Notes: generated from the letters alone by a model not told the origin. Shown: positions 3,712 through 21,680, counted from the first letter of the stretch. The stretch is 23,031 bases of DNA from Candidatus Aenigmatarchaeota archaeon (GCA_046539325.1 JBKHHD010000010.1:1-23031); one strand, 5' to 3'. Program-made: numbers and translations.

Positions 3712-4893
3712 ATGCTCGAGGTTCTAGCATTCCTGCTTGCTGGTGTCCTCATAGGAATACTCACAGGTCTTATACCCGGTTTTCATCCCAATCTTATAGC
3801 AACGCTTGCGGTTAGCTATGCGTTCTTCTCGCCCCTCAGTTCTTCAGTGCTTCTGGTTTCTGCCGGCGTGACGAACACTTTCGTGAACTTCATACCGGCA
3901 GTTTACCTTGGTGCTCCTTCCGCTTCCACGGCACTTTCCGTTCTTCCAGGCCACAAGCTTCTTCTCAAAGGAAGGGGAAGAGAAGCTATAAGACTTACGG
4001 TTGTTGGTGGTTTAGTCTCGGTATTCCTTGCAACTGCTCTCTTCCCGGTTCTTTACTTCGGACTCGAAACAGCTTACGGGGCACTTGAATCCTACATTCC
4101 CTACCTACTTATTGGTATAATTCTCTACATGGTTTGGAAGGATAGGAGGGTGGATTCGGTATTTTTCTTCTTTCTGTCGGGTCTTCTCGGATATGTGGTT
4201 CTTGAGCACAACTTTATAGGAACTATGCACGACCTTTTTCCGCTTCTGGCTGGCCTTTTTGGTATCCCTATGCTTGTCCATTCGTTCAGAAAGGATCCAA
4301 AAATACCAATGGAAGATAGATCCATAGAACATATAAGCAGTAGGGAAGTCCTGAGAGAAGGAACTTTGGGTTCAATAGCTGGAATAATAGTTGGCTTGCT
4401 ACCAGGAATAGGTTCAGCGCAGGCAACCTACTTAGTAAGAGAGGTCACTGACGAGGACAGTGAAAGAGGGTTCATGCTTGCTATTGGTGGTGTAAACACC
4501 TCCAATATACTTGTCTCAGTTTTCGCAGTATACCTTATAGGGAAAGGAAGGAGCGGTGTAGCTGTTTCAATACAGAACCTCATCCAAAATATAACCTTCA
4601 ATGAAGTAACTGTCCTTGTCCTTACAGGATTAATATCAGCAGGCCTTGCGGCTGCAGCTGCTATATACCTTGCAAGACACAGCCTCCGCCTCTTCAGAAA
4701 CCTCAACTACAGAAAGCTCTGCATGGCTGTTATGGTTTTTATATTCTCTGTTTCAGGCCTGCTGACAGGTCTGAAGGGTCTTGCTGTAGCTGCAGTGGCT
4801 TCATTTATAGGACTTTCCTGCCTACTTTCAGGCTCAAGGAGGAGCTACCTTATGGGCTCCATACTTTTTCCTGTAATCCTGTTCTTTCTGTAG
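3712..4893 (+). CDS. Tripartite tricarboxylate transporter TctA-family (archaeal DUF112) membrane protein
   Basis: Two repeats of the GLIPG/GLLPG motif, FIPAVYLGAP, SVLPGHKLLLKGRG; highly hydrophobic. Start placed at ATG 3712 after AGGTG. Confidence 0.85.
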   Translation: MLEVLAFLLAGVLIGILTGLIPGFHPNLIATLAVSYAFFSPLSSSVLLVSAGVTNTFVNFIPAVYLGAPSASTALSVLPGHKLLLKGRGREAIRLTVVGGLVSVFLATALFPVLYFGLETAYGALESYIPYLLIGIILYMVWKDRRVDSVFFFFLSGLLGYVVLEHNFIGTMHDLFPLLAGLFGIPMLVHSFRKDPKIPMEDRSIEHISSREVLREGTLGSIAGIIVGLLPGIGSAQATYLVREVTDEDSERGFMLAIGGVNTSNILVSVFAVYLIGKGRSGVAVSIQNLIQNITFNEVTVLVLTGLISAGLAAAAAIYLARHSLRLFRNLNYRKLCMAVMVFIFSVSGLLTGLKGLAVAAVASFIGLSCLLSGSRRSYLMGSILFPVILFFL

Positions 4894-4901
4894 TGCCTAA
4901 A
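4889..4901 (+). repeat. Dispersed 14-bp motif, copy 1 (13/14: cTGTAGTGCCTAAA)
   Basis: Contains both the TAG stop of the TctA-like gene (4891-4893) and the opposite-strand TAG stop of the PAP2 gene (4897-4899). Confidence 0.9.
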
Positions 4902-5346
4902 AGTCTTTCAGAAATGAACCGAGCTTTCGGTTTATATAGTCCTTTTTTGAAAGACAAAGGTAGGAAACAAAAAGCGCTATGATGATACTAGCGGCTAAAT
5001 CCACGGGCACGTGAACATTAAAATGGATCCTTGTGTAGGCTACCAAACCTCCGTAGGCTAGAATCAGGGACCTACCCTTCCACGAAGGAAAAAATAAAAG
5101 TGGTGTGAATGCAATGGAGGTATGTCCTGAGGGAAAACGTGGTGTAACAACGTCAATTAAAGCGCCCTCAGGCCTCGGAACATTCAATCCGTACTTCAGT
5201 CCGTAGGTCACAACTAAAACAAAGAAGAGGGAAGATATGTAAGGGTAGAGTTTCTCCCTGTCCCTGTAGTAGAGGTAGAGAGGAACTAGAAAAAAAGCTA
5301 CAAACCTTGCTGTGTATGTTGTAATTAGTAAAAGTCCATCAATCAT
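4897..5346 (-). CDS. PAP2-family phosphatase
   Basis: KYGLNVPRP, FPSGH and TRIHFNVHVPVD match the three PAP2 motifs. Confidence 0.9.
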   Translation of the reverse strand: MIDGLLLITTYTARFVAFFLVPLYLYYRDREKLYPYISSLFFVLVVTYGLKYGLNVPRPEGALIDVVTPRFPSGHTSIAFTPLLFFPSWKGRSLILAYGGLVAYTRIHFNVHVPVDLAASIIIALFVSYLCLSKKDYINRKLGSFLKDF

Positions 5347-8074
5347 CCATATTGACCTTCTTTCCTATTGAGCCGTTGCCTACTATGTAAACGTCTCCAC
5401 CGCAGCTACACCTCCCTTTAAGCGGAACGCGCCTGAAGTCCTTTTTACAGTCCTTGCACTGAAAACCGTTGAGTTCTTCTACAGTAGTATCATCGGGATC
5501 CTTGTTGACGGAAACGTCCCTGTCCCTGTTAACTGTGCTCCCGTTTACAATTTCATCCATGGTGGCCTGTCTTCCGTCGCCTAAAAGCTCCTGTTTATCG
5601 ACACCTATAACGTTGAAAATTCTCTCCAGTGGTGGAAGAAGCTGGGAGTTGATGTAGTAGTCTGTGTCGACCTTCAGATTGTTCTCCCTTATATAGTCTG
5701 GGTCTTCGACACGCTTTGAAATCATCTGGTTACCTTCTATTATAACGTAGGGAATCCTCTGTCCGGGTGTCGGAGCATTCGAAGGATCTCTCTTTTCCAT
5801 TTTCTTCGCAAGCTCTATATGTGGAAGAACTCCATCGTAACTGTCTATCTTCTTGGTTATCGACTTCACGACCTGAAGTTTTTCCAAAGAAACCTCTCTG
5901 TTGGATATTTTTTGTATGATTTCCTTGACGTGGTCTATAGCCTTGTTTATGTCTCCTTCCTTCAGTATTATATCTATAACGTCCTCCATCGTGTCTGAAA
6001 CTATTTCAGGCCAGTCCCTTCTAACGGTTTCTATGCCCTTCATATCTATACCTTCCTCCCAGTCATCCCCGCTCTTTTCAAACTTCCAGCCAGCATATCT
6101 CTTCTTCGTCAAAATCAGGAAGGATCGGTATATCTTCTCAGGCTCAAGTATAAGCCTTCGAGGAAGCTCGTCCGTTATAAACTGGGATATCTCCTGTGAG
6201 ATCTTATGTGCCTCGTCAAGGTTCTTAGTCTCTGCGTCTATCATAACCGAGTCCGTGTCACCATAGACAGTCCTGTAGCCGTACTCGTCCTCGATCATAT
6301 CCCTTGTTTTTTCAATTGTAACTCTGCCCCAAGCAGTTATAGCGTTAGCTATCTCCAGTCGGTACAGCCTCGTTCTGTAGTAGCCTGTGTAGCCGTAGAA
6401 GCTGTTTGTCATTATCTTTATAGCTAGCTGCTTAGCGTCGAGTCTGTTGTACTCCTTTTCATTACCCCCCTCCTTCGCCTTTGCCCTTTCCTTTTTAACC
6501 TCCGTCCTAGCGTCAATAAGATCTTCGACTGTCTTTGCGAGGATTCCTTTTCTAACGTCCCTGTTCACGAAGTAGCCTCCTGTGGGTGATTCATTCACAT
6601 CGTCCTCATCGAGATCGTATTCATCTAAGTCTTCTAAAAGAAGCGTTGTAGGGCAGATATTATAAGTACTCATTATAGACGGGTACAGCGACTTGAAGTC
6701 AAGTACAGCTATGCAGGATTCTGTGTGAAGACCCTTGTCCGGTTCCAGAACAAGTCCACCCTTGAGAGCTTCCTCCTTCCTTCTCTCGTTTCTCCTTTCC
6801 ATTTCCTCGTCTGAAGGCTTTTCCGGGAAGACGAAGTCCCTCTCTCTGAACTCATATAGAAGCATGTTGCTTATACGCTGTGTCTGCCCGCCGAAGCAGT
6901 CACTGAGAACAAGCCTTGAGATCTTCGCTAGCTCAAAGAACTTGTCAAGAAGGCTCTGCTCCAAAAGCAGCCTTAATGCAAGTTCAGCGTCCTTCTCACA
7001 GTAGTCAATAAACCTCTGAAGATCTTCCCCTGAGGAGTTCCATAACTCCTTCATCTCCTCGTACTCTACGTCCTCCTTATTCTCGCCGAGCAGTTCCTCG
7101 GAAACGCTGTCGAGGTCGTACCGCATCATTCTGTGGTATACATCGTTCTTAAGGATCGTATAAGGATCAGCTATCACCCTTCCTGTTATCTTCACGTCCG
7201 TGCTGTTCCCGTATGTATTACAGTAAACGTTTTTCTCGCACCTTCCAAAGTCCTTTCTCAGGTCGTGTTTGTCCAGTCTCTTAACAAGGTAAGAAAGGTC
7301 GAAGTCCTCTACATTGTAACCGGTTATGACGTCCGGATCGTACTCATTTATTATATCAAGGAACTCCTCAAGCATCTCCTCCTCGTTTTCAAAGTGTCTG
7401 CCTGTCGTGCTTCCAGGTTTAGCTACAAGCACCATATTTTTCTGACCCTTATGCTCGGGCGAGAAGGAACATGAGATAAGAACTATAGGGTCCTTGTCCG
7501 CATCGACCATTCGTCCCTCTTCCTGTGCAATACACTCTATGTCGAAGGAAAGGTATTTCAGGTTAGCGTTTTTCCTAGCTTCAATTGGTTCTATGTTTTC
7601 AACCTCTACGGCCTTACAGTTAACTATCTCTGTGTCCACGTACTTACCGTCTACTTCAACCCAGTGCATACCACCTAGATCGTTGTCTATTATGTACCTG
7701 TACTTGAACAGTATGTCTGTCTCGTATAGATTCTTTACAGGACCTTTATCTCTCAAGTACTCCCTCATCTCACGAACCGTGGACGGGTTTCTGAGAACTA
7801 TCTTAAGTATCTTCTTCTTTTCGTCGTCATAGCCTATGGGTGTGTATCTTTCCACTTCCCCTATCTTCTCTACGGCGCCTTCGTACTCATCCTCTATAAG
7901 CTCTAAAATTTCCTCCTTAGAACCGTTGTGGTTTTCCGGCAAACAGTAGAAATAAGGTCTGAAGCTATTGTCAAGGGCGCAGACAGTTTCACCGTCTTCG
8001 GTCTTGCCGAAAAGTCTGACTACAGGCTTGTTGTTAACCATCTTGTAGTCAGCGTCGAGTATCTGCATTTTCAT
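5339..8074 (-). CDS. polB: Family B DNA polymerase with C-terminal Zn finger
   Basis: ExoI FDIE, ExoII YNVEDFDLSYL, ExoIII YCEKDA; polymerase motifs DFKSLYPS, KIMTNSFYGY, YGDTDS, KKRY; C-terminal CKDC...CSC. Likely start ATG 8074 (MKMQILD). Confidence 0.97.
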   Translation of the reverse strand: MKMQILDADYKMVNNKPVVRLFGKTEDGETVCALDNSFRPYFYCLPENHNGSKEEILELIEDEYEGAVEKIGEVERYTPIGYDDEKKKILKIVLRNPSTVREMREYLRDKGPVKNLYETDILFKYRYIIDNDLGGMHWVEVDGKYVDTEIVNCKAVEVENIEPIEARKNANLKYLSFDIECIAQEEGRMVDADKDPIVLISCSFSPEHKGQKNMVLVAKPGSTTGRHFENEEEMLEEFLDIINEYDPDVITGYNVEDFDLSYLVKRLDKHDLRKDFGRCEKNVYCNTYGNSTDVKITGRVIADPYTILKNDVYHRMMRYDLDSVSEELLGENKEDVEYEEMKELWNSSGEDLQRFIDYCEKDAELALRLLLEQSLLDKFFELAKISRLVLSDCFGGQTQRISNMLLYEFRERDFVFPEKPSDEEMERRNERRKEEALKGGLVLEPDKGLHTESCIAVLDFKSLYPSIMSTYNICPTTLLLEDLDEYDLDEDDVNESPTGGYFVNRDVRKGILAKTVEDLIDARTEVKKERAKAKEGGNEKEYNRLDAKQLAIKIMTNSFYGYTGYYRTRLYRLEIANAITAWGRVTIEKTRDMIEDEYGYRTVYGDTDSVMIDAETKNLDEAHKISQEISQFITDELPRRLILEPEKIYRSFLILTKKRYAGWKFEKSGDDWEEGIDMKGIETVRRDWPEIVSDTMEDVIDIILKEGDINKAIDHVKEIIQKISNREVSLEKLQVVKSITKKIDSYDGVLPHIELAKKMEKRDPSNAPTPGQRIPYVIIEGNQMISKRVEDPDYIRENNLKVDTDYYINSQLLPPLERIFNVIGVDKQELLGDGRQATMDEIVNGSTVNRDRDVSVNKDPDDTTVEELNGFQCKDCKKDFRRVPLKGRCSCGGDVYIVGNGSIGKKVNMDD

Positions 8075-8142
8075 ATTATCTTTAACCCACAAACCTTAGT
8101 TGTTTTTCTAAGGTTATATCTCTTAAATTTTTCCTGTTAAAT

Positions 8143-9150
8143 TCAGATCTCAATTTCATCAACTTCCCTCGTCTTAAGGTTTACTAAAAAGGCTGTATCG
8201 TCCGTAGTGGAAAGTAATGTAACACCTTTATAGTTTGTCATAACGCTTTCATTTCCCTTAACGTGAAGTATATCAGGAACCTTCCTTATAAGGTATCTGT
8301 CCTGTAATGAATGCATCTCTAAAGGATCCAGATGTCTCTTCTTCAACAGAGCTACCAGGGCTTCCTTTGTGTCCGCTTCAAGCTCTCTTTCAGCCTTCAC
8401 TAAGGCTTCACCGTCGTGAAGAAGGATATGTAAGTCTCCAAGATCACACCTCACGGGATCTATATCCGAAAGCTCGTCAGGTTCCTCGGAGATATGAACT
8501 GCCTCTTTATCTCCTTTTTGTTCAGAAGCGCAGAAAACATAATCAGGCTCTATATCCCTTAAACGTTCCTTCACGTCATCGTTGACCTCAGAAACAAAGA
8601 GCGCAGTGAACTCCTGATCAAGTGTCGGTACGTTTCTTCTTATAGGAACGTCGGGGTTGACTATCTTACTTGGACTCATTATTACATCTTCATTCACGAT
8701 AACCTCTCCCTTAACCCCAATTACCTCGTCCTCGAGAAACTTCTCGTCTGTCTTAAGGGTAAGCTCCCCCGTCTTATCCTCAATTAAAACATTACCGTCG
8801 TCTACCTTTCTCACCATTCCTATTACGGAGGACTTTCCTGAGGATAGGTTGTTTATAGAGGATATATTTGCGTCGTCCAGCCTGTTTTTAACCTCCTCTT
8901 TGAGAAACTCAAATCTATCGAGGTAGAACTCTGTAAGTTCAGAAACATGTACTTCACCCCCTCCGCCTTCACCGTGATGAACTATCTCTGGCTTAGGGAT
9001 CTTTACTTCTTGGATATCTTTCTTAGTAATAACAAGTCCGCTTGATTCTATTACTCTTTCCATATCTTCAGTTTCCAGACTACCTGCTTCTTCTAAGACT
9101 TCTGGACTTAACAGCTTTCCCTTACTAAGGAAGTCTTCTACTGCGTTCAT
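8143..9150 (-). CDS. PolD small subunit (DP1)-like protein, shortened, nuclease motifs degenerate
   Basis: OB-fold segment SVIGMV...IEDKTG...LEDEVIGVKG, plus KKRHLDP and VPDILH are DP1-like. Metal-binding motifs SDxH, GD, GNHD and GHxH are not recognisable. Start is 9150 (TGATG overlap) or 9159. Confidence 0.8.
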   Translation of the reverse strand: MNAVEDFLSKGKLLSPEVLEEAGSLETEDMERVIESSGLVITKKDIQEVKIPKPEIVHHGEGGGGEVHVSELTEFYLDRFEFLKEEVKNRLDDANISSINNLSSGKSSVIGMVRKVDDGNVLIEDKTGELTLKTDEKFLEDEVIGVKGEVIVNEDVIMSPSKIVNPDVPIRRNVPTLDQEFTALFVSEVNDDVKERLRDIEPDYVFCASEQKGDKEAVHISEEPDELSDIDPVRCDLGDLHILLHDGEALVKAERELEADTKEALVALLKKRHLDPLEMHSLQDRYLIRKVPDILHVKGNESVMTNYKGVTLLSTTDDTAFLVNLKTREVDEIEI

Positions 9151-9296
9151 CAGAACCATTTATTTTCTGTTAAAAAACTTCCAAGGCTTTCTTTGGGAAC
9201 TATGAACTCTTTCATTCCTTCATTTTCCTTCATGAATGAAACCTTTACCTTTGAAATACCTCTGTCTTCCCATTCCTTAAGAACCATCTTTTTCAT
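9150..9296 (-). CDS. Small hypothetical protein, 48 aa (MKKMVLKEWEDRGISKVKVSFMKENEGMKEFIVPKESLGSFLTENKWF); not in the ORF track
   Basis: Translated by hand. Starts 1 nt after the cdc6 stop, and its TGA overlaps the DP1-like ATG (TGATG), filling the gap exactly. Confidence 0.65.
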   Translation of the reverse strand: MKKMVLKEWEDRGISKVKVSFMKENEGMKEFIVPKESLGSFLTENKWF

Positions 9297-9297
9297 T

Positions 9298-10509
9298 TTA
9301 TCCAAAATAATATTTTTCTTTGAGAAGGTTTTTGACCTGGTTTTTCACGTTTGTAGATACTGCAGGCTTTATCATCCTCGTCCTTCCGTAACGTCCCTGT
9401 GAAGTCACCTGGGCCTGAATTATTCCAAGCATGTCAAGCTCAGAAATTAAGTCTGAAACGCGTCTCTGTGTGAGTGGCTCGAGGCCTGAGGTCTTACATA
9501 CCTCTTCGTAGAGTGAATGAACCTCTCCTGTCTGAACCATCTCTTTTCTCTCTTCAAACAAGTTTATTATAGACCAAAGGACGGCCTGTGACTGCCTGGG
9601 CTGGCTTTCAACAACTTCGAGAATCTTGTTCCTATCTATCTCATCTTCAGCCCTGTCGACGTGCTTTGCTTCAACTTTCTTCGCATCTGATCTTTCCGCA
9701 AGCTCTCCAGAAACCCTAAGCAGGTCTATAGCTCTTCTGGCATCGCCATGCTCCTGCGCTGCAAGAGCGGCACATTTCTTCACCACTCCACCCCCAACAA
9801 CATCGTCGTGAAAAGCTTCATCGGCTCTTCCCTGAAGTATATCTTCAAGCTGTTTGGCGTTGTAAGGGCTGAACAGTATCTCTTCCTCAGAAAGGCTTGA
9901 CCTAACTCTAGGATCCAGATCGTTTGTAAAGGAAAGATCGTTGGAGATTCCAACAAGGCTCAGCTTCGAGTTCTCCAACTCTTCGTTAACCCTCGTTAAG
10001 TTATAGAGGAACTCGTCACCTGTCTTCTCAACAAGCGAATCAATTTCATCAAGAATTAAGACAAGAATTCTCTTCTCTTCATCAAGAGCGTCGAAAAATC
10101 TCTCGTAAACCTCATCCGTAGGTAGGCCCGTTGAAGGAACATCCTTGCCGAACTTCCTAGCCAGTTCAGCTATAAGCCTATACTCTGTATCGGCTACTTT
10201 TCTCAGCTTACAGTTGAGGTATACGATCTTAACTTCGGTCCCGTTCTCCTCACTCTTCTCCCTCAGTTTCTCTGTAACCCGTTTTATTACTGCACTCTTT
10301 CCTGTTCCCGTCTTACCGTAAACAAATAAATTTGACGGCTTGTTACCCTTTAAGGAAGGCGCGAGAAGAGAAGCTATAGATCTTATTTCTCTATTCCTGT
10401 GCGGAAGATTTTCAGGATTGTAGTTTGTAGAGAGAAGATCCTTATCGTAGAATAGACTCTCCTTTTCCATGTACTCGTCAAAAATTGTATCCAATGATTG
10501 CTGCTGCAT
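9298..10509 (-). CDS. cdc6: Orc1/Cdc6 replication initiator
   Basis: Walker A GKTGTGKS, Walker B ILDEID, sensor-2 GDARRAIDLLR, winged-helix tail SQGRYGRTR. Start at ATG 10509 after GGGGTG RBS. Confidence 0.97.
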   Translation of the reverse strand: MQQQSLDTIFDEYMEKESLFYDKDLLSTNYNPENLPHRNREIRSIASLLAPSLKGNKPSNLFVYGKTGTGKSAVIKRVTEKLREKSEENGTEVKIVYLNCKLRKVADTEYRLIAELARKFGKDVPSTGLPTDEVYERFFDALDEEKRILVLILDEIDSLVEKTGDEFLYNLTRVNEELENSKLSLVGISNDLSFTNDLDPRVRSSLSEEEILFSPYNAKQLEDILQGRADEAFHDDVVGGGVVKKCAALAAQEHGDARRAIDLLRVSGELAERSDAKKVEAKHVDRAEDEIDRNKILEVVESQPRQSQAVLWSIINLFEERKEMVQTGEVHSLYEEVCKTSGLEPLTQRRVSDLISELDMLGIIQAQVTSQGRYGRTRMIKPAVSTNVKNQVKNLLKEKYYFG

Positions 10510-10573
10510 GTAAACACCCCACTCAATCCCCACACCCCAAAACCGGGGACGTTTTGTTGGTAAAGATAATTTA

Positions 10574-10590
10574 GGTTTTATATAAAAAGC
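10574..10590 (-). promoter_or_regulatory. TATA box of cdc6
   Basis: TTTTATATAAAA at 10576-10587, directly beside the first ORB-like element. Confidence 0.55.
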
Positions 10591-10592
10591 TA

Positions 10593-10899
10593 TTTGCACG
10601 TGAAACGAGGGGGTCCTTAATATGAATACAGAAACCCCTTTATTTCAGGTGGAGAAAGTTTCTACTTGAAATCAGGGGGTATTTCCTTAACGTGGAAAAT
10701 ATTACACCCCTTTATTTCACGTGGAGTATTAAATGAAATTATATGAAGATGAAAAATTTTGAACTCTGAGGCTCTCACACCCTTATTTCATGTGGAAAAT
10801 AATCCTTGTATGTATGTATAAAAACGTATAACAATGTTATAATGAAAGAAAAATCCCACCCACCTCCTGATTTTTACTTTCCAAAAGAAATCGGGGTGT
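10593..10899. promoter_or_regulatory. Archaeal replication origin (oriC) with ORB elements and an AT-rich unwinding region
   Basis: Six 22-bp elements resembling TTCCAnnTGAAAnnnGGGGT: 10593-10614(+), 10634-10655(-), 10659-10680(+), 10706-10727(-), 10777-10798(-), 10878-10899(+). AT-rich stretch at about 10800-10853. Directly upstream of cdc6. Confidence 0.9.
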
Positions 10900-10930
10900 C
10901 AGGACCTTTGTTTTTCTTTAAAGGAAAAAA

Positions 10931-10944
10931 ATGTAGTGCCTAAA
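10931..10944 (+). repeat. Dispersed 14-bp motif, copy 2 (ATGTAGTGCCTAAA)
   Basis: Exact copy; supplies the TAG stop (10940-10942) of the 49-aa ORF; inverted partner of copy 3. Confidence 0.95.
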
Positions 10945-11089
10945 AACTATCAAGTTCTTCTTTCGAGACTTCACCTTTCGGGCCTAAATACTTGAGAACT
11001 TCCTGCCTAATAGAATCCCCTTCTCTCACACTCTTCACGAGATAGAGATACTTATTCCCGTTTATTTCCTTTTCACGTATGAAGGCCAT
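10940..11089 (-). CDS. Small putative DNA-binding protein, 49 aa ([49 protein letters not shown]); not in the ORF track
   Basis: Translated by hand. The pattern FIRxKxINGxxYxYLVxSxRxGxxxRQxxLKYLG resembles the beta-strand N-terminal domain of IS1634-type transposases and small archaeal DNA-binding proteins (recognition only, not searched). TATA-like TTAAATA on the minus strand at 11128-11134. Confidence 0.8.
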
Positions 11090-11096
11090 AGGCTCT

Positions 11097-11110
11097 TTTA
11101 GGCACTACAT
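11097..11110 (-). repeat. Dispersed 14-bp motif, copy 3
   Basis: TTTAGGCACTACAT, exact reverse complement; lies 7 nt upstream of the ATG of the 49-aa ORF. Confidence 0.95.
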
Positions 11111-11134
11111 ACTTTTCAAAGTAAGGGTATTTAA

Positions 11135-11156
11135 TTTCAAAATGAAATATGGGTAT
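11135..11156 (+). promoter_or_regulatory. Degenerate ORB-like element
   Basis: TTTCAAAATGAAATATGGGTAT aligns with the origin ORB TTTCCACATGAAATAAGGGTGT with 4 mismatches. Confidence 0.5.
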
Positions 11157-11193
11157 AAACTTCTTTTTACTACAGAACAGTTCCTGGACAGAG

Positions 11194-11207
11194 TTTAGGC
11201 ACTACAT
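11194..11207 (-). repeat. Dispersed 14-bp motif, copy 4
   Basis: TTTAGGCACTACAT, exact; shares one base with the pyrI TGA stop. Confidence 0.95.
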
Positions 11208-14495: not shown

Positions 14496-14554
14496 GGTTA
14501 CAGTTTTCCCTCCAGATAAATAAATTGTTGGAGAACAAATGCGTAAGGGGTAGA

Positions 14555-14983: not shown

Positions 14984-14984
14984 G

Positions 14985-14998
14985 ATGTAGTGCCTAAA
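14985..14998 (+). repeat. Dispersed 14-bp motif, copy 5
   Basis: Exact; begins 1 nt after the ribK TAA stop. Confidence 0.95.
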
Positions 14999-15037
14999 AA
15001 CTCAACTAATAAATATCTTAATATAGAACTTGTTGAC

Positions 15038-15874
15038 ATGCCAGTGAAGAAAGCTGTAATACCTGCAGCAGGCTACGGAACAAGGTCCAGACCCCTCTCT
15101 AAAGCCGTTCCTAAGGAGCTTTTTCCTGTAGACGAGGAAGACAGGCCTGTGATACACTACGTGGTTAAGGAGGCGCTTGACGCAGACATCGAAGAAATAG
15201 GCATAATCACGAGGGAAGGCAAGGGCATAAGAGAATATTTTGAGGAAGACAAACGCAAGGAAAAGATGAATAACAAAGGACTTGACGACTTGCTTGAAGA
15301 TATGAAAGAACTGGAAGAGATGGGCGGACACATCAAGTATATACCACAAGAAGAGCAGAAAGGTCTGGGCCACGCAGTACAGCAGGCCGAGGACTTCGTG
15401 GGTGGTGATGACTTCGCAATTCTTTTCGGTGACAGCTTTTTCGACGTGTATAGAGGAGAGAACCCGCTGAAGGATATGATCGAGGTCTACGATGACTACA
15501 ACGGATCAACTGTTATAGCCGCGCAGCGCTACGAAGGCGACGAGGTTTCCTCGCACGGAATGATGGATGTAGAACAGGTGGAGGGGGATATATACGAGGT
15601 CTTCGATGCCATAGAGAAGCCTGATGTAGGTGAGGAGCCTTCTAATATAGGAACGAGCTGCCGGTATATAATATCTTCGAAGGTGTTTGAGTCACTGGAA
15701 GAGATAGGCCGGGGCGCAGAGAACGAGCTACAGCTAACTGACGCAATGGTACACAACATAAAGGAGAAAGGAGAAAGGACCTACGCATATGTGTTGCCTT
15801 ACAAGAGATACCACGTCTCCAACAGAGGAGATAGATTCCAGGCCGAGAAGGATTTAACAGGCTTAAGAAAATAA
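15038..15874 (+). CDS. galU: UTP--glucose-1-phosphate uridylyltransferase-like nucleotidyltransferase
   Basis: KAVIPAAGYGTR...PKEL, QEEQKGLGHAV, EKP and ELQLTDA motifs; start ATG 15038. Confidence 0.88.
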   Translation: MPVKKAVIPAAGYGTRSRPLSKAVPKELFPVDEEDRPVIHYVVKEALDADIEEIGIITREGKGIREYFEEDKRKEKMNNKGLDDLLEDMKELEEMGGHIKYIPQEEQKGLGHAVQQAEDFVGGDDFAILFGDSFFDVYRGENPLKDMIEVYDDYNGSTVIAAQRYEGDEVSSHGMMDVEQVEGDIYEVFDAIEKPDVGEEPSNIGTSCRYIISSKVFESLEEIGRGAENELQLTDAMVHNIKEKGERTYAYVLPYKRYHVSNRGDRFQAEKDLTGLRK

Positions 15875-15889
15875 TTCATTTTCCTCGGG

Positions 15890-15903
15890 ATGTAGTGCCT
15901 AAA
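15890..15903 (+). repeat. Dispersed 14-bp motif, copy 6
   Basis: Exact; lies in the 30-bp gap between the convergent galU and phosphodiesterase stops. Confidence 0.95.
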
Positions 15904-15904
15904 A

Positions 15905-16678
15905 TCAACCGAAAGCATCCATCACAGCTCTGTACACGTCCTGCGGCTCTTTTATCTCTCTGTCCACGTTCGTGATAACCACTGCTTCTTCGTGGTGGTC
16001 ACCCTTCAGTTCTCCTTGGTCCGTCTCCTTAGGCAGTGTCTGTACCTCCGCCTCGCCAAACGAACAGAAACCATGGTCCGAGATAAGGATAAGTCTGTTG
16101 TCTTCCTCTTCCAGAAAGCCTGTATCAAAAAGTATCTCACCCAGCCTCTTGTCCACTTCCTTGTACCAGTCCAGGACCATGTCCTCACCCCAGTGGAAGT
16201 GCTGAACCCTGTCCAGCGTAGTGAAAACAGACACAAGAACGTCAGGCTTTTCTTCAAGTTCTTCCTTTGTCTTTTCCGTGACTTTTTCTAGCTCTTTGTT
16301 CCACTCCCCTTCGTTGGTGGGAAGTCCGTAACCGACCGGCTCGAAGTCCACGTTATAGCTGTAGGGCGGAACCACAAACGGGACGTTGAGAGCTCTGACA
16401 TCCTTTGTTTCGTTCAGCTCATCCCACAAAAAGTCAACGTCCAGTTCTTCCCTGCTTACAATATCCCCGTTCTCCATGAACTCCTTGTGCCCGTGGTCGT
16501 CGTAGTAGGTTCCGGAAAACATTCCTGTCCATATCAGCGGAGACAGGGGATCTTCCTTCAGCTCCACAGTCCCTGCTTCTCCCTCTTCCATAAGTCTCTT
16601 CCAGTTCGGAAGCTCATCCAGATTAGGCTTTATCATCTTCCAGGTAGCTGCGTCCACGCCAAGAACTAAAAACGTCAT
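15905..16678 (-). CDS. Alkaline phosphatase superfamily protein (nucleotide pyrophosphatase/phosphodiesterase-like)
   Basis: VLGVDAA, SPLIWTGMFSG, LDRVQHFHW, ILISDHGF and GDH metal-site motifs. Confidence 0.85.
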   Translation of the reverse strand: MTFLVLGVDAATWKMIKPNLDELPNWKRLMEEGEAGTVELKEDPLSPLIWTGMFSGTYYDDHGHKEFMENGDIVSREELDVDFLWDELNETKDVRALNVPFVVPPYSYNVDFEPVGYGLPTNEGEWNKELEKVTEKTKEELEEKPDVLVSVFTTLDRVQHFHWGEDMVLDWYKEVDKRLGEILFDTGFLEEEDNRLILISDHGFCSFGEAEVQTLPKETDQGELKGDHHEEAVVITNVDREIKEPQDVYRAVMDAFG

Positions 16679-16679
16679 G

Positions 16680-17897
16680 CTATCTCACCACGATTCCGCC
16701 GCCGTTTATCCTTCTATTCCTATCGATTACGAATCGCCCGGTTTCCATTATCTCACTAAAGTTATCTACGGCCACAGGCTTTTCCAAGGTCAACGTGACC
16801 TCTCCTACCTCATGCTGTCCTAGAGCATCTGCGTCTTCCTCTGCTACTTCCAACGTAGAGGAGTCCAGTCTTTTACTTATTTCGCTTATAACTCCTTCAG
16901 ATTCCTGCGTAGTGCATTTGAAGGTTATTTCTTCCTCTTTGCTTATTTTGTCGGGGTTTATCCAGAAGATGTTCGCTTCTACTTTCTTTGACACTTCCGG
17001 AACCTTTTCAGCATCTGAAACCATGTCTCCCCTTTCTAATCCCTTTGTACTCAAAACAAGGCCCTTAGATTCTCCTGCTTCAGCTTTTTTTGTTTCTTTT
17101 CCGAACTCCTTCACCTCTTTGACCTCCGCTTCCTCGTCCCCCGGGAACACCTTAACACTGTCGCCCTGTTTCACAGTTCCTGACTCAACCTTTCCGACGA
17201 CCACCTCTTCGCCATCCACATCGTAAATGTCCTGTACGGGGAATCTCAACGGCTTCTCCGTGGGTTCGGGCTTCGTTTCAAACCTCTCCAGAGCATCTAG
17301 AACAGTAGGCCCGTCGTACCATTCCATCTTCTCTGACTTATCCACAACATTATCCCCTTCTTCTGCGGATATAGGAATGACGTAGTTTGGATCTATATTT
17401 ATTTCTTCCAGAAACTCCTCCATCTCTTCCTTCACTTCCTCGTACCTCTCCTCCTTCCTCCCAACAAGGTCCATCTTGTTCATCGCGACCACGACCTGAT
17501 CGATGCCGAGCAAGGACAAAATATATGCGTGTCTCTTCGTTTGTGGCATCACACCCTCCTTTGCATCAATTACAAGAACGCCCGCCTCTGCCTGCGAAGC
17601 GCCCGTGATCATATTTTTAATGAACTCCTTGTGTCCGGGAGCGTCTATGATAGTATAATTCCTGTCGTCCGTGGAGAAGTAGGTCTGTGCCGTATCTATA
17701 GTGATGCCTTGATCCCTCTCCTCCTTCAGGTGGTCCATGACGTGGGCGAACTTTATGTCTCCTTCCTTGTCCTTCACGTCCATCAGTTTGTCCGCGGACA
17801 GTGACTTCGTATCGTAGAACAACCGTCCAATAAGCGTTGACTTTCCGTGGTCTATGTGCCCTACAAGCACCATCTTCAGATTTTCCTTTTCACTCAT
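16680..17897 (-). CDS. cysN: Sulfate adenylyltransferase GTPase subunit
   Basis: GHIDHGKSTLIGRL, ERDQGITID, DAPGH and NKMD motifs; EF-Tu-like; in the same operon as cysD. Confidence 0.9.
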   Translation of the reverse strand: MSEKENLKMVLVGHIDHGKSTLIGRLFYDTKSLSADKLMDVKDKEGDIKFAHVMDHLKEERDQGITIDTAQTYFSTDDRNYTIIDAPGHKEFIKNMITGASQAEAGVLVIDAKEGVMPQTKRHAYILSLLGIDQVVVAMNKMDLVGRKEERYEEVKEEMEEFLEEINIDPNYVIPISAEEGDNVVDKSEKMEWYDGPTVLDALERFETKPEPTEKPLRFPVQDIYDVDGEEVVVGKVESGTVKQGDSVKVFPGDEEAEVKEVKEFGKETKKAEAGESKGLVLSTKGLERGDMVSDAEKVPEVSKKVEANIFWINPDKISKEEEITFKCTTQESEGVISEISKRLDSSTLEVAEEDADALGQHEVGEVTLTLEKPVAVDNFSEIMETGRFVIDRNRRINGGGIVVR

Positions 17898-17901
17898 GAA
17901 A

Positions 17902-18792
17902 TCACCTTCTATTTCTAATTACCGGGTTTATATTTTCAAAGAAGACGTCGACATTGGATTTTGATACCCAGACATTGTTTTGCTGCTCATTGCATTTTAC
18001 ACCCAATTTCCCTAGTACATCAGCAAGAAATTCAATTGATTTTTCATCATAAGAACAAATTCTTGGAGACCCCGAAGGATGTATATTTCCATCAGACTCA
18101 TACCTTCCTTCAATATACTTCCATGCTATTTCCTCTGATTGAAGAAGCCATTGTTTTTTATCTTCTCTTGTAAAATTTTCTACCCATTCAATTAGTTTTT
18201 TTGAGGAAGCCCAAACAGTTTCTCTGTCCCTTCCACTTCTTTTTCCTCTGCCAGGATTCAGCCCAATTTTTCCCAGGTATTTAGAAAACTTGTCAGCAAA
18301 GTCAGAAGATTTTACTTCTAAACCAATAGTCGATTTTTTATCATGAAAACCATCACCATCTATAACGCCAAGGACGTAAGCCATTTCTTTCTTCTTATTA
18401 AATTTTAATTCATTGGTATTTTTCTTGGCGAATTTCCTCAATCTTTCTACAACTTCTTCACTTTTATTGTATTCAGCTGCAGATCTAGCAACACCTAACT
18501 TCATTGCCTTCAGTTTAATAGCCTCCCAATTTCTTTTGGGTAGTAGTTCCAACATTTTTTCTTTCCCGGCCTTGAGATAGTTTTCTTTAAGGATTTCCTC
18601 CTCTTCATCAGTCCATTTATCATGTGACCGAGTCTCAATACCGAAGCCCTTTAGTTTCCTTGAGATTAAGGGTTGTGAGACCCCAAATTTATCTGCTACT
18701 TCACCTTGGGTCATACCTCTTTCCTTATAAAGTTCAATAAGCGTATCCTTTGATAGATTGCCCTTCTCTTCTGGTGTTTTTATATTGTTCAT
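17902..18792 (-). mobile_element. LAGLIDADG homing endonuclease gene with N-terminal HTH and Myb-like repeat, inserted between cysD and cysN
   Basis: Two LAGLIDADG motifs, YVLGVIDGDG and YIEGRYESDG. N-terminal MTQGEVADKFGVSQPLISRKL (HTH) and KWTDEEEEILKENY. Lys-rich and visibly more AT-rich than its neighbours. Confidence 0.85.
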
Positions 18793-19637
18793 AGTATCCC
18801 ATTAAGTGGGAAAGCGAAAGCAATGCCGGTTATAATCATATACCCCAATGCTCTCAACTTTTGCATGATCTTCTCTTTATCCTGGCTTCTCCCGCTCCTC
18901 TCGCCTTCCTCCGTTTGTTTTATCTCGTCTATCATCCCGTTCACAGAGGTTATGTTCGACTCCACGGGCGTGGTACACGGCTCACAGCCCAACGAACGAA
19001 AGCGTTTCATCTTACCGTCCCTTTCCTCTGCAAAGTAAAGTGGATTCACTGGAAGATCCTCCCTTTTGATATATCTCCATATATCTACCTCCGTCCAGTG
19101 CAACAGCGGGTGCACACGGATATGCTCCTCTTCTTCTTTTTTTGTTTTATACTGTCCCCACATCTCCGGGGGCTGGTCCTCGTAGTCCCACTCGAACTCG
19201 TCGTCCCTCGGTGAGTAGTATCTTTCCTTCGCTCTAATTCCATGCTCATCTCTCCTTATTCCAAGGAACAACGCGTCAAAGCCTTCTTCATCAATAACCT
19301 TCTTCAACGCTTCCGTCTTCCTCAGGTTACAGCACTTCAGGTTTTCGTCCGGCCCGACACCTTCTTCATCTGCTTCATCGTTGTACGCTATCTCCAGGTC
19401 CAGGCCCCACTTATCTGCAAGCTCGTCCCTGAACTCGTACATCTCATCGAAATGGAATCCTGTGTCTATGTATATCATAGGGAAGGGAATGTCTCCGAAA
19501 AAAGCCTTCTTGCACAGCCAGGCCAAAACAGTAGAATCTTTCCCAGCACTCCACAGGGCAGCCACGTCGTCGAAGTTGTTGTACGCCTCCCTTATTATGT
19601 ATATGCTCCTTGCCTCAAGTTCATCAAGTCTGTCCAT
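18789..19637 (-). CDS. cysD: Sulfate adenylyltransferase subunit 2
   Basis: LDELEARSIYIIREA, WSAGKDS PP-loop, GIRRDE...RAKER, RVHPLLHWTE, RFRSLGC, and LRALGYM near the C-terminus. Confidence 0.92.
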   Translation of the reverse strand: MDRLDELEARSIYIIREAYNNFDDVAALWSAGKDSTVLAWLCKKAFFGDIPFPMIYIDTGFHFDEMYEFRDELADKWGLDLEIAYNDEADEEGVGPDENLKCCNLRKTEALKKVIDEEGFDALFLGIRRDEHGIRAKERYYSPRDDEFEWDYEDQPPEMWGQYKTKKEEEEHIRVHPLLHWTEVDIWRYIKREDLPVNPLYFAEERDGKMKRFRSLGCEPCTTPVESNITSVNGMIDEIKQTEEGERSGRSQDKEKIMQKLRALGYMIITGIAFAFPLNGIL

Positions 19638-19641
19638 AATA

Positions 19642-19857
19642 TCACCTGTCCAGATATCCTAACCTTTCCAGCCTCTTCCTCACCTTTTCCATGTCCACGT
19701 CCAGCTCCTCCGGCCCGTCGAACTCGCCCTGCGCCGCTATATCACGCAGCACGAACTTCACGAACTCCGTAACAGAGTTAAAACCCGTCCCCTCCACGAT
19801 ACCGTCGATCCTGTCGTAGAGGACCTTGGGAATCTTTATGTTGGCCCTTTCAGCCAT
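19642..19857 (-). CDS. CopG/ribbon-helix-helix protein, 71 aa
   Basis: NIKIPKVLYDRI...GFNSVTEFVKFVLR RHH pattern; C-terminal KVRKRLERLGYL. Confidence 0.8.
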   Translation of the reverse strand: MAERANIKIPKVLYDRIDGIVEGTGFNSVTEFVKFVLRDIAAQGEFDGPEELDVDMEKVRKRLERLGYLDR

Positions 19858-19890
19858 AGGGATATTATAGGGATGTTACCTTTAAAAAAC
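19856..19890 (-). promoter_or_regulatory. Promoter of the RHH-cysD-cysN operon with an 8-bp direct repeat
   Basis: Minus-strand TTTTTAAA TATA-like box at 19881-19888; ATAGGGAT occurs at 19856-19863 and 19867-19874. Confidence 0.5.
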
Positions 19891-19902
19891 TAACCCAGAA
19901 GA

Positions 19903-19916
19903 ATGTAGTGCCTAAA
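19903..19916 (+). repeat. Dispersed 14-bp motif, copy 7
   Basis: Exact; 1 nt beyond the stop of the 60-aa RHH gene. Same ATGTAGTGCCTAAAATCA context as copy 6. Confidence 0.95.
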
Positions 19917-19917
19917 A

Positions 19918-20100
19918 TCAGTCCATGTAACCCAGACTCCTCAGTCTGCTCTTCACCTTTTCCTCTTCCTCCTCGTCGACCTTGCTCGCCACCTTCTCCA
20001 GAATCTTCTTTATGTAGATGTCTGCGGAGTCAAAGCCCTTCTTCTTGGCCCTGATCTTGATCTTCTCATAAGTTTCGTCGTCGACTTCAACTTCAGCCAT
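19918..20100 (-). CDS. CopG/ribbon-helix-helix-like protein, 60 aa
   Basis: EVEVDDETYEKIK...GFDSADIYIKKILE; C-terminal KVKSRLRSLGYMD; GGAGG RBS upstream. Confidence 0.75.
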   Translation of the reverse strand: MAEVEVDDETYEKIKIRAKKKGFDSADIYIKKILEKVASKVDEEEEEKVKSRLRSLGYMD

Positions 20101-20109
20101 ACTATCCTC

Positions 20110-21069
20110 CTATATTTTGTCCTCGTTCCTTAAATACCATTCCAGGGTCTCTTCTAACCCTTCCTTTACATCCACGGAAGGCTCGAATCCGAGAACCTCT
20201 TTCACCTTCGATATATCCGCGAAGTTTCTTCTTATCTCGCCCTTCCGTTCCTCCTTGTTAATGACTTCCGGAAACTCCACGTTCTTCTTTTCAGCCACGT
20301 CTTCTAAATATCCTATAAGCTCGTTCACAGACGTCTCTTCTCCAGTTCCCAGCTGCAGCAGCTCAAACCCTTCCTTGTCCTCTTTCAGTGCCATGTATAT
20401 TCCCCTGCAGATATCTTCTGTGTGTATGTAGTCCCGCGTCTGCTCACCGTCGCCGTACACGAACAGCTCTTCACCCTTGAGTATCCTCCTTATGAACTTG
20501 TGAACAACGCTCTCCTTGTGAAGCGAGTGCGGACCGTAGACGTTGGAGAAGCGCAGAGCGACCGTATTCAAACCAAATGAACCTGCGTAAGCGCTGCAGT
20601 ATCCTTCGCCTGAAAGCTTGCTCGCTCCGTAGGGCGCCAGAGGTCGTGGGACATCCTGCTCGGAGACAGGCGGTTCCACCTCGCCGAGCGGCGCTGCAGA
20701 GGAGGCCTGCACGAACTTATCCAAACCTTCCTCCTTGCTGGCCTCAAGCACGTTCAGCAGTCCGTTAACGTTCACGTCGGCGTCGAACTTAGGATCTTCA
20801 ACCGAAGGCATAACACCGACCTGCGCCGCCAGGTTCACAACATAGTCGCAGCCTTTCACCACTTCCTTTACCATCTCTTCGTCCCTTATATCGCCTTCCA
20901 CCAGCTCCACCCTTCCACCATCAAAACTGTCCAGGTTCTTCACAGCGCCAAAGCCACGCGCAGAGAGGTTGTCAATAACCCTGATCTGCCAGTCAGTCTT
21001 CCTAAGGATAAAACTAACAAAATTAGTTCCGATAAATCCTGCGCCGCCCGTTACAAGTATCCTTTTCAT
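20110..21069 (-). CDS. NAD-dependent nucleotide-sugar epimerase/dehydratase
   Basis: VTGGAGFIG, NLAA, ASSAA, YGASK, RFSNVYGP and GDGEQTRDY motifs; start ATG 21069 (ATGA overlap). Confidence 0.92.
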   Translation of the reverse strand: MKRILVTGGAGFIGTNFVSFILRKTDWQIRVIDNLSARGFGAVKNLDSFDGGRVELVEGDIRDEEMVKEVVKGCDYVVNLAAQVGVMPSVEDPKFDADVNVNGLLNVLEASKEEGLDKFVQASSAAPLGEVEPPVSEQDVPRPLAPYGASKLSGEGYCSAYAGSFGLNTVALRFSNVYGPHSLHKESVVHKFIRRILKGEELFVYGDGEQTRDYIHTEDICRGIYMALKEDKEGFELLQLGTGEETSVNELIGYLEDVAEKKNVEFPEVINKEERKGEIRRNFADISKVKEVLGFEPSVDVKEGLEETLEWYLRNEDKI

Positions 21070-21680
21070 GCTTTCACCAGGTGCGAAACAACGTGGAAGA
21101 ACTGCCAGAAGTGCTCCCACATAACTCTTCTTGGTTTGTCTATCTTTTTAGTATTTGCGGGAACCTCTCCTATCCTCGCACCCTTGTTCTTCGCCTCCAG
21201 GGCAAAGGTCCCGCAGGTACATGTAGTGCCTAAATCCATCTCCTTCGCAAGTTCCTTTGTCAATGCCCTGAACCCGGTCCCTGTATCGCTGACGTCCACT
21301 TTGAAGTTGGCAAGCCAGTTCAGAAACCTCTCCGAAGGCCTGGGTATAACTTCACGTGCCCCGAACACCAGATCCTTTTCACCTTCCACAACGGGCTCGA
21401 CCATCCTCTTCACGTCCTCCGGCTTGTGCTCGCCGTCGGCGTCCATCGTGACTATTACATCGCCGCTCGCTTCCTTGAACCCGGTTTTTATACCGTCTAT
21501 ATATCCATTGCCTCTATTCTCAATAACTTTAGCTCCGGCCTCCTTCGCCTCCTTGATAGTTCTGTCTTCGGAACCATCATCCACGACCAGTATTTCATAT
21601 TCTTCAGAAAGAGAATCCACTACCTCGCCTACCCTCTCTTCTTCGTTGTACGCGGGAATAACTACCGAGACGTCAGCCAT
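21066..21680 (-). CDS. GT2 glycosyltransferase
   Basis: SVVIPAYNEE, VVDDGSEDRT, TMDADGEH and DTGTGFRA motifs. Confidence 0.9.
   Translation of the reverse strand: MADVSVVIPAYNEEERVGEVVDSLSEEYEILVVDDGSEDRTIKEAKEAGAKVIENRGNGYIDGIKTGFKEASGDVIVTMDADGEHKPEDVKRMVEPVVEGEKDLVFGAREVIPRPSERFLNWLANFKVDVSDTGTGFRALTKELAKEMDLGTTCTCGTFALEAKNKGARIGEVPANTKKIDKPRRVMWEHFWQFFHVVSHLVKA
21221..21234 (+). repeat. Dispersed 14-bp motif, copy 8 (intragenic)
   Basis: Exact; lies inside the GT2 CDS, where it encodes part of D-L-G-T-T-C on the minus strand. Confidence 0.93.

Follow-up and report, generated by a model that had tools for sequence, protein, structure and literature searches.

REP elements are palindromic hairpins that occur in tens to hundreds of copies, and RAYT is a domesticated transposase of the IS200/IS605 type which keeps its catalytic domain. 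Truncated transposase derivatives that are left with DNA binding only, of the InsA type of IS1, regulate their element. The insertion sequence (IS) family IS1634 is described in PMC2266710 by a length of 1.5-2 kb, poorly conserved ends and direct repeats of 5-6 bp. Here we report on a word of 14 nucleotides, ATGTAGTGCCTAAA, which is repeated on a 23,031-nt stretch of DNA from a Candidatus Aenigmatarchaeota archaeon (GCA_046539325.1, JBKHHD010000010.1:1-23031; this whole stretch is called the window below), and on a gene for a protein of 49 amino acids (aa) that lies between two of the copies beside a predicted replication origin (oriC). The comparison of this locus with its relatives indicates that the word is probably the cognate site of the family to which the 49-aa protein belongs.

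A small protein and its candidate site

The window is one contig of a genome (G000) that was assembled to 715 kb in 10 contigs, with a completeness of 91%, and it was compared within a sample of 41 related genomes, namely nine of the window's family (G000, seven other members of the same genus and one member of a second genus) and 32 from 18 other families, the related genomes all being draft assemblies. Genes were called as the longest open reading frames (ORFs), and counts across these genomes are not independent, as the genomes are kin. A search of the window with up to 2 mismatches returned seven exact copies of the 14-mer and one with 13 of 14 matching positions, against a shuffle expectation of 0.09 and a maximum of 1 in 100 dinucleotide shuffles, and this is the set of eight copies given in a preliminary description of the window. 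One copy had been placed there at 4889; the copy exists, but 4889 is the start of its 13-nt core, and the 14-mer begins at 4888. The conserved unit is the 13-mer core TGTAGTGCCTAAA: the single mismatch of the 4888 copy falls at position 1, outside the core, and an alignment of the eight contexts leaves the 13 core columns as the only invariant ones, which confirms that the flanks are otherwise unrelated. Over all 126 exact core sites of the nine family genomes the information outside the core is limited to positions -1 (A 75, C 35), +1 (A 93) and +3 (C 62); the extended form of the site can be written as (A/C)TGTAGTGCCTAAA(A), an asymmetric site of 13-16 bp. The features of the window that concern the word and the small gene are as follows.

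10940..11089, minus strand: 49-aa gene (P0001), stand-alone homologue of the N-terminal domain of IS1634 transposases and proposed binder of the motif
11110..11120, minus strand: TATA-like box TTTGAAAAGTA of the predicted promoter of the 49-aa gene; TTT(G/A)AAAA lies directly upstream of the motif in 6/6 genomes
11097..11110, minus strand: motif copy in operator position, ending 7 nt before the ATG of the 49-aa gene and following right after TATA-like TTTGAAAAGTA
11194..11207, minus strand: another motif copy further upstream, at a distance of 97 nt from the operator copy; the pyrI stop codon ends on the first base of this copy
10931..10944, plus strand: motif copy on the outer margin of oriC; the minus-strand 49-aa gene takes its TAG stop from the CTA of this copy
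4888..4901, plus strand: motif copy CTGTAGTGCCTAAA with an intact core, where the TctA and PAP2 genes converge
14985..14998, plus strand: motif copy 1 nt past the riboflavin-kinase stop, at the left border of a variable one-gene segment
15890..15903, plus strand: motif copy between the convergent NTP-transferase and phosphodiesterase genes, at the right border of the variable segment
19903..19916, plus strand: motif copy 1 nt from the stop of a 60-aa ORF of ribbon-helix-helix (RHH) likeness; orthologous copy in the related genome G001
21221..21234, plus strand: motif copy inside the GT2 glycosyltransferase gene, minus-strand reading L-G-T-T; orthologous copy in G001

The 49-aa gene was found in six of the nine family genomes, always beside the cluster of origin recognition boxes (ORBs) described below. 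In the window it sits between the inverted copies 10931(+) and 11097(-), and an inverted repeat of 22 nt with 91% complementarity encloses it; the inverted copy forms the stop codon of the small gene in G000, G004 and G007. In all six genomes the motif starts 2-3 nt after TTT(G/A)AAAA and ends 6-7 nt before the ATG. For leaderless archaeal mRNAs, a repressor operator is usually located in the interval from the TATA box to the start. The same promoter geometry is present at 8/9 close metagenome loci, and the ninth carries a 234-aa fused form without the motif. A second upstream copy follows at 97 nt in G000, 35 nt in G001 and 25 nt in G008, and it is also present at metagenome loci. The search for the gene in the 32 genomes from other families gave 3 weak hits and nothing else, and no repeated word surrounds the genes of the weak homologues in G022 and G031. 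At the metagenome locus L301 (3001-3705) the small gene has lost its stop, and the reading frame continues across the inverted copy, translated as ELGTT, to give 234 aa; the C-terminal portion of this product contains an HEIAH motif (a possible metallopeptidase, SprT-like), and there is no copy of the word before this gene.

More distant metagenome homologues are 43-62% identical to the small protein and are fused to other C-terminal parts. At six such loci, with 43-53% identity, the word TGTAGTGGTTAA(C/A/G) is located at -20 and again at -84 to -86 in every case, and at three loci of another subgroup TGTTGTGCCTAA(A/C) or AGTTGTGCCTATA follows directly after the TATA-like box, 20-41 nt before the ATG. 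Across the lineages it is the distance to the TATA-like box that is constant, not the distance to the ATG. Both position (a fixed place in the promoter in 6/6 genomes) and co-variation (variant words at the nine loci of two other protein subgroups) agree with an autoregulated operator. Variant words of the motif are TGTAGTGGTTAAC and TGTTGTGCCTAAA.

The AlphaFold model of the 49-aa protein (pLDDT 90) consists of three long antiparallel strands and a short C-terminal helix, and neither Pfam nor NCBIfam holds a model for it. A profile search against 1.8 billion representatives returned 1396 proteins at E <=1e-3, in which the match is almost always N-terminal; none of these 1396 cluster representatives has a Pfam model that covers the module, and the ESM Atlas returned unnamed small clusters only. 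The named longer forms are mostly DDE transposases (PF01609) of about 550 aa which belong to the IS1634 family. A profile of 11 orthologues matches the PF01609 proteins of this length with E about 1e-10 and 50-65% identity over 69-92% of the query, and one homologue of about 550 aa matches NF033559 'IS1634 family transposase' with E 1.7e-105. The homology to the IS1634 transposases is confined to their N-terminal ~40 residues. PF01609 (DDE_Tnp_1) was not found in 9/9 family genomes, and the 49-aa ORF itself ends in the motif. Judged from these matches, the 49-aa protein is a stand-alone, single-copy relative of the N-terminal module of the transposase and not a transposase. The module is also fused to Fic, HNH, HTH_32, ddrB-ParB and nucleotidyltransferase parts, and together with B12-binding domains it occurs in proteins that match CarH from position 80 onward, where it replaces the DNA-binding domain of CarH. 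In the CarH-like fusions, and likewise before Fic, HNH and HTH_32, the module is placed where a DNA-binding domain would be expected.

To compare the word with the IS1634 elements themselves, 55 of 80 bacterial IS1634-type loci were examined, leaving aside 25 that were truncated matches or repeated an element already taken from that record. On the sense strand the hexamer GTAGTG is found at -70 to -83 relative to the start of the transposase in 29/55 loci and at +23 to +99 past the stop in 29/55; 37/55 have it in either flank and 21/55 in both, compared with 0/55 in each of the two flanks for the antisense hexamer and 6% for shuffled flanks. In 90 kb of coding sequence of these loci there are 2 sense and 6 antisense copies of GTAGTG. 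The extended bacterial words include TGTAGTGCTAAAT, which is one base short of the archaeal motif, ATGTAGTGCC, ATGTAGTGCCACG and ATGTAGTGGTAACAC. In genomes with several copies of the element the ends could be defined by a terminal inverted repeat (TIR), CCCAACTTGAACAGT, together with a 5-6-bp duplication, and both GTAGTG positions lie inside these ends. This is in line with what PMC2266710 says of IS1634.

As the family's own promoters, the promoters of distant homologues and the subterminal words of bacterial IS1634 elements all agree, we regard the N-terminal module as most likely the reader of the motif core, and the core itself would be the ancestral subterminal word of the IS1634 family. 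We propose that a protein of 49-55 aa, encoded beside oriC, binds (A/C)TGTAGTGCCTAAA(A), presumably as a monomer in view of the site's lack of symmetry, and may repress its own promoter. The site would descend from subterminal sites at both ends of IS1634-type elements.

Several results weigh against a pairing of the small protein with the word. The AlphaFold model has no match to a solved DNA-binding fold: Foldseek against the PDB gave E values above 1 and none at E <=0.001, the best VIA-align Z was 3.9 with PC4/Pur-alpha-like and arm-type integrase domains among the weak tied rows, and a profile search found no sequence relative in the PDB. The phyletic match of gene and word, with the gene in 6/9 family genomes, is weak by itself, because kin share many features, and the gene was not found in G002, G003 and G006, which contain the motif and are 83-90% complete (the G003 contig ends inside oriC, and G002 and G006 are fragmented). 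The variant TGTAGTGGTTAAC is not dispersed in 371 genomes of the class: it has 6 single copies, none of them beside a homologue, which is about the level of the reversed control, and the dispersal is therefore special to the family. Eighteen of the 55 bacterial elements have no exact GTAGTG in either flank. Furthermore, the TIR CCCAACTTGAACAGT of the bacterial relatives, considered as a counterpart of the motif, had to be rejected since it is unlike it; the likeness is limited to the subterminal words.

Dispersed copies in the genome and the family

Outside the window the word was found throughout the family. In the genome G000 the core occurs 18 times exactly and a further 3 and 10 times with one and two mismatches, and a composition model predicts 0.03, 1.0 and 18, respectively; an excess of exact and one-mismatch copies over background, for which a count had been proposed in the preliminary description, is therefore present, and the distribution of the core is all-or-none. 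Exact cores occur in 7-19 copies in each of the nine family genomes (0.6-0.7 Mb), and a single exact copy in one of the 32 genomes of other families; the reversed control word has 0 copies in all 41 genomes. By position, the family's sites form 50 groups, of which 23 are common to two to seven genomes and 27 are restricted to one genome.

In five groups of non-coding sites the motif is 100% identical and the flanks (40 nt on either side) are 17-57% identical, most clearly at C6 22109 and C6 66541; mean flank identity is 50-63% over all 9 site groups examined, and the orc1 region of the related genomes is 69-85% identical to the window. With respect to genes, contact with a stop codon is made by 30 of the 126 sites; another 37 are inside ORFs of at least 150 aa, 17 in doubtful small ORFs and 42 at other intergenic positions, 21 of these between divergent gene starts; 21 sites are located between convergent gene ends. 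Hosts of the coding sites include an Elp3-type gene (in 5 genomes of both genera), a Cas4-like nuclease gene and the GT2 gene of the window. Where relatives carry coding sites that G000 lacks, several alignments are gapless at the motif and the difference is made by substitutions; in one case the same peptide, RVVPKQ, is written with different codons. The motif was said to be used in either orientation relative to the gene, and the family data agree, as the tandem gene contexts are split 13 vs 10 by motif orientation and sense and antisense coding groups are about equal in number.

Because the motif stays identical while its flanks diverge, and because coding copies arise by substitution, we conclude that it is evidently selected as a DNA word in either orientation, and that the coding sites were by all signs born by point change and then kept. 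The earlier assumption of a DNA-level site bound by a protein thus gains support from the conservation throughout the family, the use of both orientations, the substitution-born copies and a candidate binder. In the window 6/8 copies (4888, 10931, 11194, 14985, 15890 and 19903) overlap a stop codon or lie within 1-2 nt of one. At 4888 the TAG ends the TctA gene, and the CTA is the TAG that ends the PAP2 gene on the other strand; the stops touched at 11194, 14985, 15890 and 19903 belong to PyrI, the riboflavin kinase, the phosphodiesterase and the 60-aa RHH ORF. A position mostly at gene 3' ends is hence true for the window but not for the family (30/126 sites). The frequent contact can be ascribed to an incompressible word with stops in three of its six frames and to squeezed spacers.

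The contact with stops, together with an antisense reading that starts with TTTT, would be expected if the word acted in RNA, as a terminator, a processing site or a site bound on the transcript. We consider this very improbable. Both orientations are used equally relative to genes, and free orientation points to a function at the level of DNA and against one at the level of RNA. Furthermore, 21 sites lie between divergent starts, the distance that is fixed in three lineages is the one to the TATA-like box and not the one to the ATG, and no hairpin is shared: there is no common fold in the eight 54-nt contexts of the window copies and no Rfam match anywhere in the window, so that the lack of a hairpin noted before holds. 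With no fold, no Rfam match and both orientations in use, an intrinsic terminator and a part of a known structured RNA or tRNA were ruled out as well.

That the copies are inert relics of the ends of IS elements or of miniature inverted-repeat transposable elements (MITEs), or an artefact of assembly or adapters, has next to no probability in our view. The core word is indeed shared with the subterminal regions of IS1634 elements, and the 22-nt inverted repeat around the small gene could be taken for element ends. The dispersed copies, however, share no sequence beyond the core and positions -1, +1 and +3, they have no target duplications, and the coding alignments are gapless, by which IS or MITE copies are excluded. 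As to an artefact, exact orthologous copies are present in nine separately assembled genomes whose flanks diverge, and contigs of two metagenome runs match the window without differences, though these runs may be the source of the window. Both outcomes, which the preliminary description had named as fatal to its proposal, are contradicted by these data. Its suggestion of an uptake or recombination signal is unlikely in the uptake part, and a DNA uptake sequence could be ruled out, as such a word would have hundreds to thousands of copies and not 7-19 per genome of 0.6-0.7 Mb.

Some sites deserve a separate remark. The TctA/PAP2 site of the window has orthologous copies in G002, G003, G004 and G007, and G003 has two in tandem, 17 nt apart; at this G003 junction only 4 nt remain between the two copies, as if a segment had been lost or a copy duplicated. 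Tandem direct copies 17, 25 and 67 nt apart are found at G003:C16:5323-5352, G008:C12:13099-13136 and G004:C13:8619-8698. In the divergent region between herA and a hxlR-type gene (G000:C1:51440-51462) the motif is preceded by 20 nt (GGTYTTTAGAAARGTYACGGTGAGA) that have 84% identity in five genomes, compared with 30-40% for the other flank, which suggests that a second conserved promoter or operator element abuts the motif there. In the literature searched no paper had the 13-mer, those found for the word and its parts were unrelated as judged by their titles and the beginnings of their abstracts, and neither the domain nor such a system was found described there.

Candidate roles of the dispersed sites

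At the other 7-19 sites per genome the protein may act as a steric peg. As it has no second domain, a steric effect would be the simplest one, and the likeliest of the roles considered here, as a tentative proposal, is that of an autorepressor which may also serve as a local block or insulator for transcription and for the edge of the origin in a genome where spacer DNA is almost absent. The operator in the promoter of the small gene itself, the site at the edge of oriC in 6/6 genomes, the sites 10-11 nt upstream of the TATA-like boxes of three genes and the 21/126 sites that are wedged between convergent genes are consistent with a block or boundary. The 37/126 sites inside long ORFs speak against it, because a roadblock would seem harmful there. 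As a by-product, bound or repeated sites could become places at which gene content changes.

The positions near promoters can also be read as a classical regulon, in which neighbouring promoters are controlled by an ordinary transcription factor, be it the small protein or a different one, able to activate or repress from a site just upstream of the B recognition element (BRE) and TATA box and to repress from a site downstream of it. The motif lies 10-11 nt upstream of the TATA-like boxes of a thiI-like gene (C3 12840), of the NTP-transferase gene (window 14986, the 14985 copy, at ~10 nt) and, inverted, of herA (C1 51463), and 18 nt upstream of such a box in another conserved group. The 21/126 sites between divergent starts would be well placed, and the neighbours include genes for DNA-acting proteins, namely orc1, herA, topo VI-A, an SF1 helicase, the Cas4-like nuclease and thyX. 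This theme, however, was seen post hoc. Moreover, the 21 sites between convergent ends have no promoter within reach and 37 are inside ORFs of at least 150 aa, the distances to start codons vary, and the copies are all-or-none, whereas degenerate sites are normal for a regulon; we therefore hold a regulon of this kind to be unlikely. As a further observation, which was likewise made post hoc, polB (in G007) and pyrI are also among the DNA and nucleotide genes that adjoin or host sites.

The location of the gene brings the origin into consideration. The predicted oriC and the initiator gene of the window are given by two features.

9298..10599, minus strand: orc1/cdc6 gene with Pfam Cdc6_C, Cdc6_lid and AAA domains
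10594..10899, both orientations: predicted oriC with ORB-like repeats of the ACCCCTTTATTTCAnGTGGAG type, which differs from the motif

The gap of 600 bp upstream of orc1 holds five to six copies of the 21-nt ORB-type repeat ACCCCTTTATTTCAnGTGGAG and an AT-rich stretch at about 10800-10860, and polB is located 1.2 kb beyond orc1. Equivalent ORB-like clusters adjoin orc1 in 6/6 related genomes examined. The preliminary description is right in that three copies of the motif are beside oriC; they stand just outside the ORB cluster, the nearest site being 17-200 nt from the outermost ORB in 6/6 genomes, and the motif also occurs far from the origin. The motif and the ORB or mini-ORB elements known from archaeal origins are both repeated elements that adjoin orc1/cdc6, but the ORB here is ACCCCTTTATTTCAnGTGGAG. 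The motif was rejected as an origin recognition box because a different 21-nt repeat forms the ORB cluster in 6/6 genomes; the origin recognition element of the window is the ACCCCTTTATTTCAnGTGGAG repeat, not the 14-mer. Neither this distinction nor the 49-aa gene, which holds the key to the element, figures in the preliminary description.

A role of the sites in chromosome organization at the origin, as a centromere, as a loading or anchoring system similar to parS-ParB, SegB or matS, or as a mark of the oriC edge, would explain that the gene remains beside oriC in 6/6 genomes despite local inversions of the module and that a site stays so close to the outermost ORB. The 23-kb origin contig makes up 3% of G000 and carries 8/18 of its cores, and in G001 7/18 sites are on the origin contig. 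The sites are indifferent to coding context and strand, like parS and matS, and SMC and four ParA/MinD-type ATPases also exist. On the other hand, the site is not palindromic and has no dyad symmetry, the candidate binder is a three-stranded sheet without a second domain for recruitment, and no ATPase gene adjoins the small gene. The clustering near oriC that is clear in G000 and G001 is weak elsewhere, with 1-2 further sites in each of G004, G007 and G008 beyond the protein's own 2-3, and the assemblies are fragmented. The polarity of the sites relative to oriC has no consistent pattern on the fragmented contigs, and the orientations on the orc1 side differ between G001 and G004. Taken together, we do not think it likely that the sites serve primarily to organize the chromosome at the origin.

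Another reading is suggested by the variable segments that the sites border. Sites could be junctions at which segments are inserted, lost or inverted, by an unidentified site-specific enzyme or by fork stalling and template switching. Between the phosphodiesterase and riboflavin-kinase genes G007 has one site and no gene, G000 has the NTP-transferase gene between two sites, G001 has an HTH (helix-turn-helix) gene and a nucleotidyltransferase gene between two sites, and G005 has a 150-aa gene and one site. Alleles with an insert between two sites and alleles with a single site also exist between pyrI and the small gene (G000 vs G007) and between nifU and thiI (G000 vs G008), and the module of the small gene, with inverted sites on both sides, has one orientation in G000, G004 and G007 and the opposite one in G001, G005 and G008. 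Variable or contig-terminal DNA, which makes up 35% of G000 and 34% of G001, contains 13/18 and 10/18 of their sites (p=0.0016 and 0.05) in a comparison of the two genomes that was based on 479 reciprocal best hits between crude ORF calls, and 7/126 sites are within 100 nt of a contig end where ~2.3 would be expected from rounded contig numbers.

There are several points against such junctions. Neither recombinases of the tyrosine or serine type nor a DDE_Tnp_1 transposase could be found in 9/9 family genomes, the highest density of sites per kb is in conserved junctions, 23/50 site groups are at fixed places between genomes, and point substitutions give rise to the coding sites. Four metagenome runs showed no excised or joined form at any motif copy, and the gene calls behind the synteny test are crude. 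We thus regard recombination or cassette exchange at the sites as quite unlikely. The integron attC site comes to mind because at several loci a single variable gene stands between direct copies of the motif, as it would between cassette borders, but the motif has no imperfect hairpin and most sites are fixed between species; attC was ruled out, with no hairpin, PF00589 in 0/9 genomes and no integrase of known type. A search of the nine family genomes (77-94% complete) for Phage_integrase (Xer-type), Resolvase and DDE_Tnp_1 had no result, and the control genomes were positive. The lack of a Xer-type recombinase would be unusual for archaea.

A further version combines the preferred binding of the word by the small protein with this exchange. 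Ultra-small archaea would then have domesticated the DNA-binding head of IS1634 alone with its subterminal word and set the gene at the origin, and the pegs so formed would be the junctions of a gene-cassette exchange without recombinase, or polar barriers for the fork or RNA polymerase whose stalling drives the exchange. This version is rather improbable.

The gene content of the window comprises secD/F, tctA, the PAP2 gene, polB, orc1/cdc6, pyrI/pyrB, NAC, glycosylation genes, an EF-Tu-type GTPase gene and others. Two small ORFs at 19642-20100 on the minus strand flank the motif copy 19903. The one of 60 aa is 95% identical in G001 and has a weak FitA-like ribbon-helix-helix match (E 0.002), the one of 71 aa has a faint HicB-like match, and they may be a small antitoxin-type pair. 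The GT2 gene (21066-21680) overlaps the epimerase gene (20110-21120) by 55 nt as called. Since the same overlap is called in G001, it is probably real, or the true start of the epimerase gene is later. At 17892-18836, in a stretch of low GC content (38.8% in 18001-19000), the gene 17902-18792 (minus strand) encodes a 296-aa protein with HTH and LAGLIDADG_3 parts, and no motif flanks it. A more abundant relative in two metagenome runs has 17891 joined to 18837 with 13 other letters between, and for this reason the gene looks like an insertion between the EF-Tu-type GTPase and PAPS-reductase genes, free-standing and either homing-endonuclease-like or WhiA-like.

Relation to known systems

If the word is the site of the small protein, a DNA word would be assigned to a widespread unnamed module that heads IS1634 transposases and many archaeal fusion proteins, and IS1634 elements should be recognised through their subterminal GTAGTG-core sites. 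The tiny uncultivated genomes of the DPANN type have very few recognisable regulators, and in this family a Xer-type recombinase was not detected; a 13-bp site at the edge of the origin and at variable junctions would offer a handle on the biology of such chromosomes. Should the exchange or barrier version apply, it would be a new route by which a part of a transposon organizes a chromosome and its accessory genes.

The nearest relatives are the elements of the IS4-related IS1634 family themselves. The 49-aa protein is homologous to the first ~40 residues of their transposase, the GTAGTG core is at fixed subterminal places in them, and one copy of the word is upstream of the gene, as at the 49-aa gene. 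In contrast to these elements, no DDE domain could be found in the family, the dispersed copies are not surrounded by terminal inverted repeats or target duplications of 5-6 bp, and the 49-aa gene exists as a single copy, keeps its synteny with oriC and is conserved in both genera.

ParB-parS and the archaeal SegB likewise have a cluster of sites near the origin, some of them in genes, and the gene of the binder, here a candidate, beside its own sites, but the site described here is non-palindromic, its protein has no HTH or RHH fold, and no ParA or SegA gene is adjacent. Tus-Ter of Escherichia coli is similar in other respects: an asymmetric site of similar information content, about ten copies, recognition of the monomer type, which is presumed here, one site in the promoter of the protein's own gene (tus), and sites within genes or at gene ends. 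The folds are unrelated, the sites of the archaeal family are beside the origin and not the terminus, and no opposed polarity around a landmark was found for them. With REP/RAYT the family shares a single-copy, transposase-derived gene that is flanked by a short clade-specific word which is dispersed mostly between genes. Here, however, the word is asymmetric, has 7-19 copies and is coding in ~30% of them, and the protein is a binding module only, from the unrelated DDE family.

The system is best filed, as a prediction, among the site-specific DNA-binding proteins that have an operator for autoregulation and a few selected sites dispersed over the genome; new in this case are the fold family, the origin from an IS1634 transposase head and the host group. 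If this holds, it would be a case of transposase domestication in prokaryotes that is reduced to the binding domain, following a logic like that of CENP-B or SETMAR in eukaryotes and of REP/RAYT in bacteria.

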